From Escherichia coli (GTDB taxonomy: Bacteria; Pseudomonadota; Gammaproteobacteria; Enterobacterales; Enterobacteriaceae): a stretch of 64,000 nucleotides of DNA. The stretch lies in the NCBI RefSeq assembly GCF_045037415.1, contig NZ_CP173438.1. One strand, 5' to 3'. Of the stretch, positions 18,001 to 24,000 are shown one piece after another. A program made the position numbers. Position 1 is the first letter of the stretch. Each line of letters opens with the position of its first letter.

Positions 18001-21000
18001 AAGCTGTTGATTTTGGTACGCCCAGGCGACGCCCGACCACAACCTGGGGTAAATGTTCTTCAAAGTGAAGACGTAAAGCTTCAGTGATCCAAGTCCGGTG
18101 TTTCATACGATAGTGTCCATTAAAAATGATGGACATTATTTTTGTAAAACCGGAGGAAACAGACCAGACGGTTTAAATGAGCCGGTTACATGTAATCCAT
18201 ACTCATCCAAGGTTTAATTCTGACACAATAAGAAAATATGGAAAGTCTCGCTCTAGAGATGGGGAGAGGGATATTGAAGTGTATGATATTCCAAGAACTG
18301 CCGGAGATATCCTCGTAAATGGATTTTCCAGTGCAAACTGATAACAAATTCGAAGTCATTATCTGCAACAAGATTGATTGATGTAGGGGATATGTTAGAG
18401 CATTATAATGCTCAAGGATTTGGCGTGATGACATCTGCGCCAATTGATGCGACACTATATGATAAACTGGATGCTATTTGCAGTAAGTGTAAAATAGAAC
18501 AAATAAATTTTTCAGTATTAGAGTCAGAACGCGCACTATATTATGACGATATATTAAGATGCCGTTACTTTGGTAAATAACATAAAATTAATCAATATGG
18601 TAATATATCAGTTGTAATTGATCGAAACAAAGCACATAAATGCCATCTTAGAAAGATGGTGTTTTTTAAGCATATAAAATATATTTTCTATAAGATATAG
18701 GGCAAACTAAATTTCTTGACTTCTATGATGGACTAACTAGATATACATGCCGCCAGTTTTTATAAAACGACGGCATATATAATCATTTATATATCTTTTG
18801 ATTTTATTCGTAACCACTCATGTTGATCTAAACCTATTCTTGACAGATTAGCAACAATATCAGTTGTTATTTTTTGCGCGTACGTTGTTTTTATTTCCCC
18901 GATCCATTTCAATACTTTTGGAGTAGATATTTTTTCAACGAGTAAAGGAACGAATGAGATATAGTCAGTATTAACTAGATTGTTCTTTTTCCCTATGATG
19001 ACACCGTTTCCATTTTCGACTCCAAATGAAAATGAAATAATATTAGAAGCTTTTGCCGGCATTTTAATTTTATAAAAACCGCCATATTCATCTTCGATTA
19101 ACAAATTGTAATTATTATCGTCCAGTGTTCCCCTGAGGAATAAAAAATCGGCTTTTTCATGCAATCTGACGCTATCACATAATGGTTGTATGCATAGATA
19201 GACAAAATTATATGCATCTAAAAGTAAAGTTCCTTGTTTTAAGGACACATTATCTATATGAGAATGATATCTTAAACTCCTGCGCGTGATTTCCAGAGAG
19301 CATAATTGCATTAACTTTTTATCTTCTTCACCATCTTGGCTTAAGTATTCCTTTTTACCTAAAGATGCGTGTTCAATAGCGTGTTGAATTTCTTCTAAAG
19401 AATCAGCAGAGAGTATATTCCTTAGATGTTCTACTGATAAGTCTTTTTGTTTTTTTCCAGTTAATAGAAAATTCTTACAACCATTTTCTGCATAGTGAAA
19501 AATAGGCCAATGGGATAAGGAGTTTTTGCTTAGAGATTTCTTTAAGTTTTCACTTATTTGCAATATTGATCTTATTTCTTCAGAAATTAAATCTACTGCA
19601 TAATCATGAGCATTTTCATAAGCATATGCCCTTGACTCCTTGGATTTTATTAAATTTAAGATGTGGGAAACATATGCAGTGTCTAATTTATTATTATATT
19701 TTGTTAATATCCCATGGGTTTTTTCTCTTATTTCAGAAATGCAAGAGAGTGCGGCGTTGGATAGCAACCCAGCTGTAAGGTTAGTGAATTTTTTTATTAA
19801 CACATTTGGAAGATCTTTTTCATAAACGTCTTTACTAATAACAACTATACACCATTGTTCGAGTGCATAGTTATCTTCAATAAAAATACTATCATCATTT
19901 TTTATTACGCTACGGTATGTTTTCTTTAACTCATTGTTCAACTTAGTTATAACAGCAGTAACATGTTCACCAGTATAAATAGAAAGAAGACGTAAACGTC
20001 CTCCAGAATTTATATCTGAAACGATTATCGATTTTATTATTTCAATAGCAAATTGCCCACTATCGCTTTGCATATCCCAGTCAAGTATTGTTATATCTGC
20101 CTTGTGGGATGATGCTGTAATTATATCTCTTTCTTCAACATTAAAACTCTTAGCTAATAATCCGCAACAAGCAATACCATCTTTGGCGAAAGCTTCTGCT
20201 AGAGCTTGGTAATCAAAAGGATGGTTTTTTACCTTTGCTTTTGATTTAGTTGATTCTATCCTTGGGGATGCTGATGCTGTTATTATTGGTGTAGGATCAT
20301 CGTCGGGATCAACTAAAGCATTAATATCTTCGTCTGTAGGGAAAGTATCACTACCAGCTCCAAAAGACATATTGTCATCTACAGCAACTACAGAATGTAA
20401 AAAACGGCGAACGCAGTCTTCAGAAAGTTTATGAAAATCAGTAGAGCTTGTCATTTATTTATATCCGCTATTCACTTGTTTCTTCTGATGGCTCAATAAT
20501 AAAGAAAGCACCCTGTTCAGGAGTGTAATCATCCAATCTTATAGTAAATCCATCTCGAGATAAACACTCTTTGGAAATGAATAATCCCATTCCACGCCCT
20601 CCTGTTTTTCGTGTAAATCCCATATCAAATATTATATCTCGATCTCTAGTTGAAACACCGGGACCAGTATCACCAATAACAAATCCTGTTTCAGTAGCAT
20701 CAAGTATAAGTCTTTTTTCTCCAGTTGTTTTCCCAAGCCAGTATATTGCGTTATCAATTAGATTTATAAAGACAGGGTAAATGGTTGATGTGTAAGTTAC
20801 AATTTCTTGATTAACAAACTTTGAGGTAGTGAATAATTCAATTCCTTCTTTCTCAAGACGATCATCGAATACATCTCTGATAAATTCTAAAATGGCAGTT
20901 CCAGTTATATTGGTTTTAGAGCGACTTAAACGTCTTGTCAATGGTGTAAAGGTTTTTAAATAACCATCTAAGTGATCAAAACTAGTTCTGATTTTTTGGT

Positions 21001-24000
21001 ATATAATATCAAGCTTAGGATTTCTGTCAGCCCATGCTTTTAATTCCCTTAGCGCACTTCTAATTGCCCTAATATTACCATTAAATTCATGATGTACTAC
21101 AGAAAGAGCCATGCCAAGTAGTATTAACTCTGCGTTATTTGCTTGTTGGTCTCGTAAATGTTCAAGTTCAGTTTCGATTGCTTCAGTTACTTGAGCCGAT
21201 GATAAATTTTCAGAAGTGGTACTATCACTAATTATTGCAATCTGGTCGGTTAGTTTTCTTATTTCATTAATCACTTCGTTTGAAGTATTCTCAATTTTAC
21301 TTTCTAGATTTCTTTTTACATCCAATATATACGCAGTATCTTTGCCATTGAGATTAGTTGATTGGAATTCATAAGAAATGTTTTTTAGTTCACTCTTATG
21401 TTTTTTCTTATTATCAGAAATTAACCTATTTGCTTTAGATTGCACATCTTTCAAAGCATTTTTAGCGTCATTATATAACTTTGTTAGTTCTTTTTCATAG
21501 TAACTTTGTTGTAGATTCAAAGAATCTTCAAGTCTCTTCCGTAAGTTGAGAAAATCATTATTTTTATTATCCAGTTCTATAAGCTTTCTATCAACGTTAT
21601 CTTTTAGCTCATTTAGTGATAACAGTATTTTTTGTCTTTCTATTTGATATCTATCCCATAAATTAGATAACTCTTTTGTTAATCCAACTCCAGAGGGTTT
21701 CTTTATATCCACAGAATTACGTAGATTTTTAATGATAGCATCATTTTGTTCTTTAATTTTATTGTATACATAATCTATATTGGTGTCTGTTATTTCTGTA
21801 CTGGAGAAATATTCCTCGTTTTTATTGATTAGCTTATTTATTTCAATATTCCAGTAATCATTATCTAACTTATCAAAAAAATCATACAGATCTTTCTTTA
21901 ATCTATCTTTTTTAGCTTTAGTTTGTTTAGATCTTTTAGATAACAAATCATGTTCTTCATTTCTACGTTGCTTTGTCTCAACAAATAATTCAGACATATC
22001 GCCATCGTCCTTAAAGAAATCTCTTGCGATTTCGATGAAGAAATTTTCAAGCATTTCTTTAAACTGTTTATATGGCTTATTTTCAATGAATCCTTCTCGC
22101 CCAGCTTTTTCAACTAATGAAGCATTGTTTTCTTTTGTTAATTCTATTGCTCCAAACAAACGTCGATATGAGAAAAAATATTCAGAAGCGGATAACGTTC
22201 TTCTCTTTTCTATTTTTAGAAAATCCGTATCTGAATCTCCATAGGGCAAAATTCTTAATCCATCTCGATAGATATATAAACCACCATATCTATCTGTTTT
22301 CTCCTTCAGAGGGGCCCACAACTCCATGGGTAAGCGTGAATCACGAAGCCGACCATGAATATACGCTAATTTTATTTTAAATGGACCGCATTGGGTTAAT
22401 TGATTATTATTTTTCCAAGTCACGACATGATGAATTGGCTCTTCACCATAAACAGAAACAGTTCCACTGAATTGACCAAATTCATTGAACCATCCTTCAA
22501 TGTGGTGATCTGCAAGATTGAATTCTTGCGGTGTAAAAAAAATTGATTCGCTAATTCTGTCAATGCACTCACCATCTTCCAGATAGTCTCTAAAACGAGC
22601 TATAATAGGAGGGTTTGAATCACTGTACATTGTGTTTGTAAAACCTAATAAAGCTTTTTCTAAGCGAGAAGACTGCTCTGATGTTTTATTGCTATCGCTC
22701 GTGGAAATGTCATCTATTAATATTTCTTCGGTAGGCATTATTATGAAGTGAGTTCCATGCCCATCTCCAGATAGTCTTAGCCCACCTAATTTTTTTTCCC
22801 ATAGAATAGGATCAAATTCAAAAGATGATAATTGTGTATTTATTTGTGATACTTTTGATTTTGATATTTTGTGTGATAAAGAGTCTAAATTATTTCTTGC
22901 TTGCTCAATCATCTCATCAAGAGTTTTTTTAGTGAAGCATTCGTCGTTGATAATAGTTCTAATTGGTATTTCTATATCATCAAGATCAAGTGATGGTATA
23001 GCAAATAAACTCCAATTAACAAATGCAGCAACTAATGGCTTAAGCTCATTGTCTCTTTTGGCCCTAGTAAGAACCAGCACCTGTGGTCCAATTGCTGCGA
23101 TAGATAAACGGCCTATTCCTTTCTCTCCCATGATAGGGCGAAAGGCTTTATTACTATCCACTGCTGGTTTATTAATTGCATCATCGTCGATTAATTTGCT
23201 GGAGGTTCCAATAGTCAACCACCTCTCTTCAAATTCATCGGTTGTCATACCTAATCCATCATCTCTCAAGATAAGAAGATTTTCTTTCCTAAAAAAATCA
23301 ACTTCGACATTATCAGCATAGGCATCATGAGCATTTTTAAATAACTCACTCAAGGCAGTAGGTATACCTGCAATTTGTTGTCTGCCAAGCATGTCCAAAG
23401 CTCGAGCCTTTGTTCTTATTTTAGCCATATATCTATGAATCCTTATTAGTACAATTTTCTATGAGATGTAGCCCAAATAGTCTAGCGAGTTCGCAAGGTA
23501 CAGCATTGCCGATTTGCTTTGCCATTGAATTCAGCGAACCTTTAAAAACATAGCTTAAAGGAAATGTTTGTAATCTTGATGCTTCTCTTATGCTAATTGC
23601 TCTATGTTGAGTGGGGTCAGGATGCCCAAAACGACCATTGGAGTAACTATTACATTTCGTCGTAAGTGTAGGCGCAGGCTTATCCCAACTCATTCTTCCA
23701 TAAGTATCTGTGTGGCCATCATAATTTTTATGGCATTTATTAACTAACTCTTCTGGCCAATTTCTTCTATCCCCTCCTTCTGGAGTGTGCATAATTCTTT
23801 TTAGGTTAAGAGGGCTCAGTGTTCCAGCCCTATGTAAAGGATCTTTGGGGTCGGTTTCTCCTGAACATAACTTTGTGAAGTCCTGGATATAATCTCGTAC
23901 AGTTTTGAATGGGATTTTATTTTTACCATGGGTTATCTCTGGTAGGGTAACTTTACCTACTCGACTAGCTAAGAGCACGAGTCTTTTTCTTCTTTGGGGA

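Follow-up and report, generated by a model that had tools for sequence, protein, structure and literature searches.

The locus examined here is a three-gene cassette built around a 986-amino acid (aa) ATPase-kinase hybrid, located in a 64,000-nucleotide (nt) stretch of Escherichia coli DNA (assembly GCF_045037415.1, contig NZ_CP173438.1) that is referred to as the window. Its closest described relatives are the "two-component-like" HEF_HK/Response_reg_2 modules (PF19191/PF19192) reported by Bellieny-Rabelo, Pretorius, and Moleleki (2021, Genome Biol Evol; PMC8011034). That study started from a Pectobacterium homologue with "two HATPase domains (PF02518; PF13589)", and the homologues in Pectobacterium had come to light through their induction under stress. 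The kinase-like and receiver-like genes of the family were linked (91.6 % in 644 regions), an upstream C5 methylase was frequent, and type II restriction-modification, HNH_2, and Vsr genes were enriched. The family, which occurs in Enterobacteriaceae including E. coli, was without transmembrane segments, and its predominant architecture, termed "group 1", was HATPase_c_3+HEF_HK+HATPase_c (174 of 222 sequences). The family was proposed to be an offshoot of the paraMORCs and not of MORC proper, the receiver-like proteins were stated to contain no other known domain, and the function was left open by the authors (PMC8011034).

Two other described groups are close to this locus in part. The GHKL+S5 ATPases known as prokaryotic MORC and paraMORC proteins are encoded in restriction-modification operons (Iyer, Abhiman, and Aravind, 2008; PMC2292703), and Detocs is an anti-phage two-component relay that leads to a toxic effector (Rousset et al., 2023; bioRxiv 10.1101/2023.01.24.525353).

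The 986-aa protein of the window is near certain to be a member of the HEF_HK "HK-like" family, group 1. It contains an HEF_HK domain with the His-Glu-Phe motif together with HATPase_c_3 and HATPase_c, it is soluble, and its gene lies next to a Response_reg_2 gene and near a C5 methylase gene. As a sequence feature it is therefore nothing new: its architecture, partner, and methylase linkage were already described for the same triad in 2021, the families have dedicated Pfam models, and the exact protein is present in RefSeq (WP_001063091.1, "ATP-binding protein", 100 % identity). A first-pass annotation, made from the sequence alone, had called the combination of two ATPase modules unusual. 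This does not hold, since the combination is the predominant form of the family (PMC8011034) and is shared by the best 120 homologues found in the present analysis.

Domain architecture of the 986-aa protein

The 986-aa protein is encoded by a single open reading frame (ORF) with an ATG start on the minus strand, as determined from the ORF listing and translation. The plus-strand reading of the same interval was riddled with stops and the minus-strand frame was open, so the gene was assigned to the minus strand. The first-pass annotation had given the 986-aa ORF at 20468-23428, where it is present, and had not given the strand. The gene and the regions that it encodes are as follows.

20468..23428, minus strand: paraMORC-histidine kinase hybrid, HATPase_c_3 + HEF_HK + HATPase_c, 986 aa
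23039..23428, minus strand: GHKL (Bergerat) ATP-binding domain, residues 1-130, with motifs I (E28, N32), II (D56-G60), III (G101-G106), and IV (T121)
22079..23038, minus strand: second alpha/beta domain, residues 131-450, corresponding in position to the Hsp90 middle domain or the MORC S5 transducer
21119..22078, minus strand: long charged helical arm, residues 451-770 (approximately 320 aa), the least conserved region and partly heptad-like
20921..21118, minus strand: HEF_HK dimerisation/phospho-acceptor (DHp) domain, residues 771-836 (PF19191, 1.5e-25)
21089-21091, minus strand: codon of the candidate phospho-acceptor H780, in the invariant H-E-F motif
20471..20920, minus strand: catalytic ATP-binding (CA) domain, residues 837-986, with N, G1, F, and G2 boxes (HATPase_c, 5e-10)

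Three Pfam domains were identified in the protein, namely HATPase_c_3 (PF13589; residues 24-130, 2.5e-11), HEF_HK (PF19191; residues 771-836, 1.5e-25), and HATPase_c (PF02518; residues 883-981, 5e-10). NCBIfam models placed the two ends of the protein in different families, and residues ~700-980 matched many sensor histidine kinases. The seven motif strings that had been quoted for the protein were all located in it by string matching.

residues 28-38: ELFKNAHDAYA
residues 56-61: DDGLGM
residues 101-109: GEKGIGRLS
residues 777-789: VVHHEFNGNIRAI
residues 889-897: NLIDNAIYW
residues 920-925: DTGPGV
residues 943-950: GGRGMGLF

A scan for the longest hydrophobic runs found none of 17 residues or more, and thus the protein has no transmembrane segment, as the first-pass annotation had stated. 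The 986-aa protein is a soluble hybrid in which a GHKL ATPase with a putative transducer domain occupies the position of a sensor domain, followed by a helical arm and a HisKA-type DHp+CA core.

An AlphaFold2 (AF2) model was built on an alignment of 35 homologues, with a predicted local distance difference test (pLDDT) score of 76 and a predicted template modelling score of 0.55. The model consists of three parts: the GHKL head and the second alpha/beta domain up to residue ~450, a series of eight helices (residues 451-802), and the second DHp helix with the CA domain.

The N-terminal head (residues 9-126) matches BbrUII/HgiDII restriction enzymes, HtpG, sacsin, and MutL in NCBIfam, and a search of PDB sequence profiles gave a weak match of the head to HtpG. 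A phage gene annotated as ParaMORC3 matches residues 3-124, and the match of the PADLOC REase_II model is confined to the N-terminus. GHKL motifs I-IV, including the catalytic Glu and the Mg-binding Asn, are all retained, as in MORC/paraMORC ATPases. Residues 131-450 form a well conserved globular domain (AF2 pLDDT mostly 80-92). No Pfam S5 or MORC model matched residues 131-450 in any of the 35 members, and no Pfam family covers this domain. When the N-terminal ~450-500 residues of the model were compared with the PDB by Foldseek, the matches were HtpG/Hsp90 (E = 2.6e-10; 491-554 columns) and the ATPases of SMCHD1 (457 columns) and MORC3 (495-496 columns; target-normalised TM-score 0.46-0.52), the latter two at E values of ~8e-9. 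All of these alignments reach past the GHKL head, and the assignment of the N-terminus to a MORC/Hsp90-type GHKL module is thereby borne out at the level of the fold.

The C-terminus was identified as a histidine-kinase core by both sequence and model. A PDB sequence profile of ThkA (3a0r) matched residues 754-980 (6.4e-17), and the profile matches of the DHp region were to the DHp+CA cores of ThkA, ZraS, and HK853. In the model, the second DHp helix spans residues 804-825 and an alpha/beta CA domain spans residues 839-980. Foldseek aligned the C-terminal ~230 residues with the kinase cores (DHp+CA) of ZraS, YycG, HK853, and CpxA over ~220-270 columns. The HisKA-type features present include H780-E781, N889/D892/N893, D920-x-G922, F934, and G944/G946/G948. 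The histidine-kinase boxes noted earlier are thus genuine, and the candidate phospho-acceptor region noted with them corresponds to H780 of the H-E-F motif, which is invariant in the 35 homologues.

The two modules are separated by the helical arm, for which AF2 predicted eight helices of 19-65 residues (451-472, 480-522, 525-543, 551-573, 585-622, 626-690, 698-734, and 744-802). The longest of those within the arm is 626-690, and the last helix (744-802) enters the DHp domain and bears H780. The arm is composed of 22 % K+E and 1.8 % G+P, and it gives weak matches to apolipoprotein A-I among PDB sequence profiles. The heptad signal was moderate (16.7 % of 28-residue windows exceeded the 95th percentile of shuffled sequences), and therefore "long charged helical arm" is a safer description than "coiled coil". 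The first-pass annotation had described about 250 aa of coiled coil between the modules. The long helices and the richness in Lys and Glu stand, but residues 131-450 are globular, the arm is approximately 320 aa long, and its heptad character is limited as given above.

Conservation and catalytic residues

A database search with the 986-aa protein yielded 4,905 homologues at E <= 1e-5. The best 120 of these were all ~950-1,040 aa long and all contained the same three Pfam domains; they originated from Gammaproteobacteria, Bacteroidota, Calditrichota, Caulobacteraceae, and a Methanosarcinaceae metagenome-assembled genome (MAG). Conservation was evaluated in the alignment of 35 of these homologues with 42-66 % identity to the query, in which HATPase_c_3, HEF_HK, and HATPase_c were detected in all 35 proteins.

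In the N-terminal module, the GHKL residues E28, N32, D56, G58, G60, G101-E-K-G-I-G106, and T121 were invariant. The H-box residues H780, E781, and F782 were likewise invariant, as were N889, D892, N893, G922, P923, F934, G944, G946, and G948 of the kinase boxes, and D920 was at least 90 % conserved. The mean column identity was highest in the GHKL head (0.81), followed by the DHp domain (0.69), the second alpha/beta domain (residues 131-450, 0.64), the CA domain (0.61), and the arm (residues 451-770, 0.47). Both ATPase modules look catalytically competent, because their motif residues are invariant across 35 homologues at 42-66 % identity. Pfam families and invariant residues in 35 of the 35 homologues indicate that the N-terminal motifs are no chance match. 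Each end belongs to a GHKL family of its own and the catalytic Asn and Asp residues are conserved, in agreement with the earlier proposal of two distinct Bergerat-fold modules in one polypeptide.

The receiver-like partner

The third gene of the cassette encodes a 555-aa protein, which the first-pass annotation had put forward as the phosphotransfer partner of the kinase. The gene indeed encodes a receiver-like protein (Response_reg_2, PF19192, residues 18-198, 4.1e-29 in Pfam) with the following parts.

18787..20454, minus strand: receiver-like partner, 555 aa, third operon gene (RefSeq WP_016238529.1, "response regulator receiver domain")
19780..20454, minus strand: receiver-like domain, partner residues 1-225, with the acidic pocket D26/D27, D125, T161, and K208
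20080-20082, minus strand: codon of the putative phospho-acceptor D125 of the partner
19270..19779, minus strand: strongly conserved helical bundle (residues 226-323), then a small variable alpha/beta region; together partner residues 226-395
18790..19269, minus strand: beta-rich C-terminal domain with a long terminal helix, partner residues 396-555, candidate effector

In an alignment of 40 homologues, each covering 98-100 % of the partner length, D125 and K208 were invariant, and D26, D27, and T161 were at least 90 % conserved. An hhalign comparison aligned ITILD125WDM of the partner with VISD57WNM of CheY, which placed D125 opposite D57 of CheY. The receiver chemistry of the partner thus looks intact, and H780 and D125 form a competent-looking His-Asp pair as judged from conserved residues. 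The helices of the bundle correspond to positions 5-98 in the numbering of the AF2 model (residue number minus 225).

The partner's C-terminal domain has numerous invariant residues, namely C421, Q423, P424, C426, D427, R430, W517, E520, K522, Q527, R539, G541, E546, W547, and R549. In the AF2 model it adopts a beta-barrel-like fold with a C-terminal helix, as in the MazF/CcdB/Kid superfamily, and MazF/CcdB toxins ranked first in both of the two fold-comparison methods that were applied to this same model. Pfam gave nothing for the domain even at E <= 10, and PDB sequence profiles gave nothing either. The hhalign probability against MazF/Kid/EndoA and CcdB sequences was < 1 %. The likeness to MazF/CcdB is accordingly regarded as a tentative, fold-level resemblance of the predicted structure. 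This tentative, model-based assignment of the output domain is new relative to the previous description (PMC8011034).

An exhaustive profile search with the C-terminal domain recovered 1,457 cluster representatives (50 %-identity clusters), 1,208 of which matched at E <= 1e-10. Among the best 150 of the 1,457 representatives, no informative fusions were found; the domain occurred in the C-terminal position of same-architecture proteins of ~500-640 aa or in sequences of 126-461 aa, which are presumably fragments. A Pfam scan of the partner detected no helix-turn-helix (HTH) or other DNA-binding domain.

Operon structure and distribution of the triad

The 986-aa gene is preceded by a methylase gene, which is the first gene of the cassette.

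23433..24479, minus strand: C5 DNA cytosine methyltransferase, 348 aa, first operon gene (RefSeq WP_000635307.1)

The methylase ORF matched TIGR00675 (dcm) at 2.1e-48, which is above the model cutoff, and PADLOC MTase_II at 2.2e-95. The methylase stop and the start of the 986-aa gene are 4 nt apart, and the stop of the 986-aa gene and the start of the partner gene are 13 nt apart. The methylase, the 986-aa gene, and the partner gene constitute a single foreign operon, because these gaps are short and the guanine-plus-cytosine (GC) content of the cassette is 33.8 %, compared with 45.5 % for the window.

The cassette is flanked on both sides by decayed mobile-element genes (16552-18136 and 24860-26751). 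One side carries IS3 and IS66 TnpA fragments, and the other has a pseudogene of the TraG N-terminus, a fragment of VasL, and one of an IS66 transposase. Beside the E. coli cassette, no extra nuclease or Vsr gene was recognisable, and the small ORFs on its flanks are either pieces of IS3/IS66 or without a family. The region 18000-25000 is 100 % identical in many complete E. coli genomes, such as that of the urinary-tract-infection strain 4/0, and 194 of the 5,426 complete E. coli genomes (~3.6 %) contain at least 80 % of this region.

The order methylase, HATPase_c_3/HEF_HK/HATPase_c protein, and Response_reg_2 protein, with tight spacing, was observed in all six distant contexts that were sampled (a Methanosarcinaceae MAG, Aliiglaciecola, Yersinia pseudotuberculosis, Acinetobacter, an SAR92 bacterium, and Photobacterium). 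These triads adjoin integrases, a conjugative relaxase, an AlpA-type satellite-like (P4-like) element, a P2-like prophage end, and toxin-antitoxin pairs. The accessory neighbours vary by lineage and include a DUF1016/YhcG nuclease, DUF3427-HNH, HNH_2, HNH plus Vsr, or none that is recognisable. The accessory genes beside the triads, in the coordinates of the respective sampled loci, are the following.

L002, 13504-14574: accessory gene beside the triad
L005, 12810-13574: accessory gene beside the triad
L006, 11832-12704: accessory gene beside the triad
L007, 4076-5791 and 11680-12120: accessory genes beside the triad

No recognisable nuclease gene adjoins the triad in the E. coli, SAR92 (L008), and Photobacterium (L009) copies, and this suggests that the methylase-kinase-partner triad is the functional core. 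In the SAR92 locus, an unannotated 174-aa ORF lies directly downstream of the triad. The triad is a self-contained, horizontally mobile three-gene module, of which the methylase is an obligatory component.

A shorter relative without the N-terminal head is represented by phrog_8137, which matches residues 385-979 of the query (1.7e-100). In the E. coli phages phi467 (LN997803.1; 369-3837 of the extracted locus L010) and CP-1639 (AJ304858.2), a 572-aa headless relative of the kinase directly adjoins the integrase, and the protein encoded after it, of 582 aa, has a Response_reg_2-like receiver (hhalign probability 88 %).

Proposed function and alternative explanations

The cassette can be read as a methylation-gated defence or addiction module with a two-component phosphorelay of Detocs-like logic, and we give this reading an even chance of being correct. 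In such a module, the methylase would mark the host DNA. The kinase would be a constitutive dimer through its DHp domain, like HisKA kinases, and its two GHKL heads may close in an ATP-dependent manner (cf. MORC, Hsp90, and MutL) to form a gated ring or clamp. Closure of the heads would respond to the state of the DNA, such as unmethylated incoming DNA, and the helical arms would carry the change in the heads and switch the autophosphorylation of H780. The phosphoryl group would pass from H780 to D125 of the partner, and phosphorylation may then free or activate the predicted MazF/CcdB-fold domain, which would act as an effector that arrests growth or targets nucleic acids. The logic has precedents in Detocs, a proven anti-phage relay, in the defence protein VcSduA with its GHKL head, and in CapK-CapS-VapC, where a GHKL kinase controls a nuclease toxin. 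A more specific version holds that the triad by itself makes up an immune or addiction system of a type not recognised before, in which an ATP-gated MORC-like clamp reads methylation and a phosphorelay leads to a MazF/CcdB-fold toxin. Epigenetic discrimination of self from non-self would thereby be coupled to abortive growth arrest, not DNA cleavage. This version is possible and at present doubtful.

Several points weigh against the proposed phosphorelay module. That the GHKL module senses DNA or its methylation is inferred only from the family context (PMC2292703), and literature searches found no functional study of HEF_HK or Response_reg_2 proteins, only the 2021 bioinformatic paper. PADLOC gave no defence-system model beyond generic matches to MTase_II and to the N-terminus of REase_II, and the cassette could not be assigned to any named defence system on this basis. 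The effector could lie elsewhere in some lineages, because many loci carry extra HNH, Vsr, and DUF1016 genes. The heptad signal of the arm, the part that would transmit the change in the heads, is moderate.

In an alternative explanation, the triad is an ATP-dependent restriction complex. The partner or the hybrid would then be a novel endonuclease that cuts unmethylated DNA, with the MORC-like module looping or clamping the DNA, the kinase and receiver only gating cleavage, and without abortive infection. The GHKL head is common to BbrUII/HgiDII (4.6e-20, residues 9-126) and the PADLOC REase_II model, the linkage to a C5 methylase is tight, Vsr is often downstream, and DNA looping by paraMORCs in restriction-modification operons has been proposed (PMC2292703). 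The invariant D427 and E520-x-K522 of the partner are, in addition, superficially PD-(D/E)xK-like. On balance we consider such a complex unlikely. The system may instead be regulatory, with the kinase sensing an intracellular cue such as a nucleoside triphosphate (NTP) and the partner tuning the expression or activity of the linked methylase or restriction-modification genes in place of an effector role. Direct or indirect control of restriction-modification systems and possible NTP sensing by HATPase_c_3 were proposed by the authors of the 2021 study, who also found the Pectobacterium homologues to be stress-induced (PMC8011034), and most response regulators are transcription factors (bioRxiv 10.1101/2023.01.24.525353). 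However, the partner contains no HTH or other DNA-binding Pfam domain, its C-terminal domain is predicted to resemble MazF/CcdB toxins and not the outputs of transcriptional response regulators, and the E. coli cassette holds nothing else to regulate. The triad moreover travels as a unit across phyla and into an archaeal MAG, near integrases and prophage ends, a behaviour expected of selfish or defence cargo and not of host regulators. Regulation as the main role is thus distinctly unlikely.

A further explanation is a purely selfish addiction (post-segregational killing) module without any role against phages, in which loss of the cassette would dilute the methylase, under-methylated host DNA would be sensed, and the segregant would be killed. 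Restriction-modification modules act in this way (discussed in PMC8011034), the effector is predicted to have a toxin-like fold, and the cassette is patchy (194 of 5,426 complete E. coli genomes) and lies among the insertion sequence (IS) remnants of an island. On present data, pure addiction is indistinguishable from defence, and the two are not mutually exclusive. The placement of triads at prophage and satellite ends beside integrases fits the sites of anti-phage cargo. P2/P4 hotspots are known locations of such cargo. Addiction as the sole function appears highly unlikely. Finally, the DHp+CA core could be a degenerate pseudo-kinase whose sole part is to let a MORC-type ATPase dimerise, with the receiver-like protein in a structural role and no phosphotransfer. 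The conserved Thr/Asn at His+4 that is tied to phosphatase activity is missing from HEF_HK (bioRxiv 10.64898/2026.02.27.708494), and Response_reg_2 diverges from other receivers and has long insertions in its loops. On the other hand, the catalytic residues are nearly or fully invariant (H780-E781, N889/N893, D920, G922, and G944-G948 of the kinase; D26/D27, D125, T161, and K208 of the partner), and conservation of such a degree would be unexpected in a pseudo-enzyme, which makes this explanation extremely improbable.

What remains of interest is the function of a widespread module and the tentative MazF/CcdB-fold assignment of its output domain. The family is large, as the partner's C-terminal domain occurs in at least 1,200 50 %-identity cluster representatives at E <= 1e-10. 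The module is carried by ~3.6 % of complete E. coli genomes and is here located inside a uropathogenic virulence island.

Genomic island in E. coli

The cassette lies within an island that carries hlyCABD, cnf1, and cdiBAI and is located beside dsdA. The window is a uropathogenic E. coli pathogenicity island, as indicated by the presence of cnf1 and hlyCABD with cdiBAI and dsdA. The cnf1 gene (1,014 aa) and hlyCABD are at 166-11565 on the minus strand.

The cdiA gene (27165-30329, minus strand) encodes 1,054 aa, compared with 3,262 aa in strain 4/0, and an in-frame block of ~6.6 kb (2,206 codons) is absent. At the junction, positions 24001-28275 of the window correspond to 26002-30276 of the comparison locus L001, and positions 28270-34000 correspond to 36895-42625 of the same locus, with a 6-bp overlap. 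The shortened cdiA keeps both its TPS domain at the N-terminus and, beside cdiI (26782-27168), its toxin end.

A conventional response regulator of the OmpR family (240 aa) and a membrane-type sensor kinase (490 aa) are encoded at 14362-16557 on the plus strand, ~2 kb from the cassette. This pair adjoins a molybdopterin oxidoreductase/cytochrome b pair and is unrelated to the HEF_HK module.

Comparison with known systems

HgiDII-type restriction enzymes are paired with C5 methylases. The 986-aa protein shares with BbrUII/HgiDII (NF050001) a homologous N-terminal ATPase head (residues 9-126, 4.6e-20). However, only positions 8-119 of the 659 model positions are matched, and the remainder is absent. 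Membership in BbrUII/HgiDII was rejected, with a score of 71.7 bits against the curated cutoff of 550. Compared with the HEF_HK modules described previously (PMC8011034), the protein is the same, and the E. coli cassette is a minimal form without an HNH or Vsr neighbour. The paraMORCs (PMC2292703) share GHKL motifs I-IV, a putatively transducer-like second domain, linkage to cytosine methylase, Vsr, and HNH genes, and lateral mobility. Whereas paraMORC1-5 have nuclease, TIR, or other C-terminal extensions or helicase partners, the 986-aa protein has a helical arm and a full kinase core.

The paraMORC3/type I-D Shedu protein VcSduA, an experimentally proven anti-phage protein, similarly has a GHKL head for which control of a fused effector has been proposed (Adams et al., 2025; PMC12137116). 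In Shedu, a DUF4263 PD-(D/E)xK nuclease is fused straight to the ATPase, and there is no kinase, receiver, or methylase. In the CapK-CapS(-VapC) system, phosphorylation by a GHKL-fold kinase that is switched on by single-stranded DNA controls an immune operon or a nuclease toxin (Chambers et al., 2026; PMC13373217). CapK, in contrast, is a Ser/Thr kinase of the anti-sigma-factor type with a STAS-domain substrate, and it has neither a His-Asp relay nor a MORC-type module. MADS, which was considered for its combination of methylation and a kinase, is irrelevant, as the only histidine kinase mentioned in the MADS paper is a gene that bounds an island.

Detocs is the described system closest in logic to the proposed phosphorelay module. 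Detocs passes the phosphoryl group to a receiver fused to a toxic effector in place of a DNA-binding domain, as is proposed for the triad, and both have a cytoplasmic histidine kinase with a non-canonical sensor and are carried as a mobile operon. The cassette is not a Detocs system (TPR-kinase dtcA, stand-alone buffer receiver dtcB, and receiver-effector dtcC), as it contains one receiver-like gene and no stand-alone receiver ORF, and it would at most work in a similar way. In Detocs, the sensor is of the TPR type, the receiver is canonical, DtcB is a third, buffer receiver protein, the effector is usually a PNP ATP-nucleosidase, and a methylase is absent, whereas the triad has a GHKL ATPase sensor, no buffer gene, and an obligatory methylase. 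If the proposed reading is true, the triad would be a second, independent phosphorelay immune switch after Detocs, and it would offer a tractable bacterial model for the sensing of epigenetic DNA marks by MORC-type ATPases, with relevance to eukaryotic MORC and SMCHD1.

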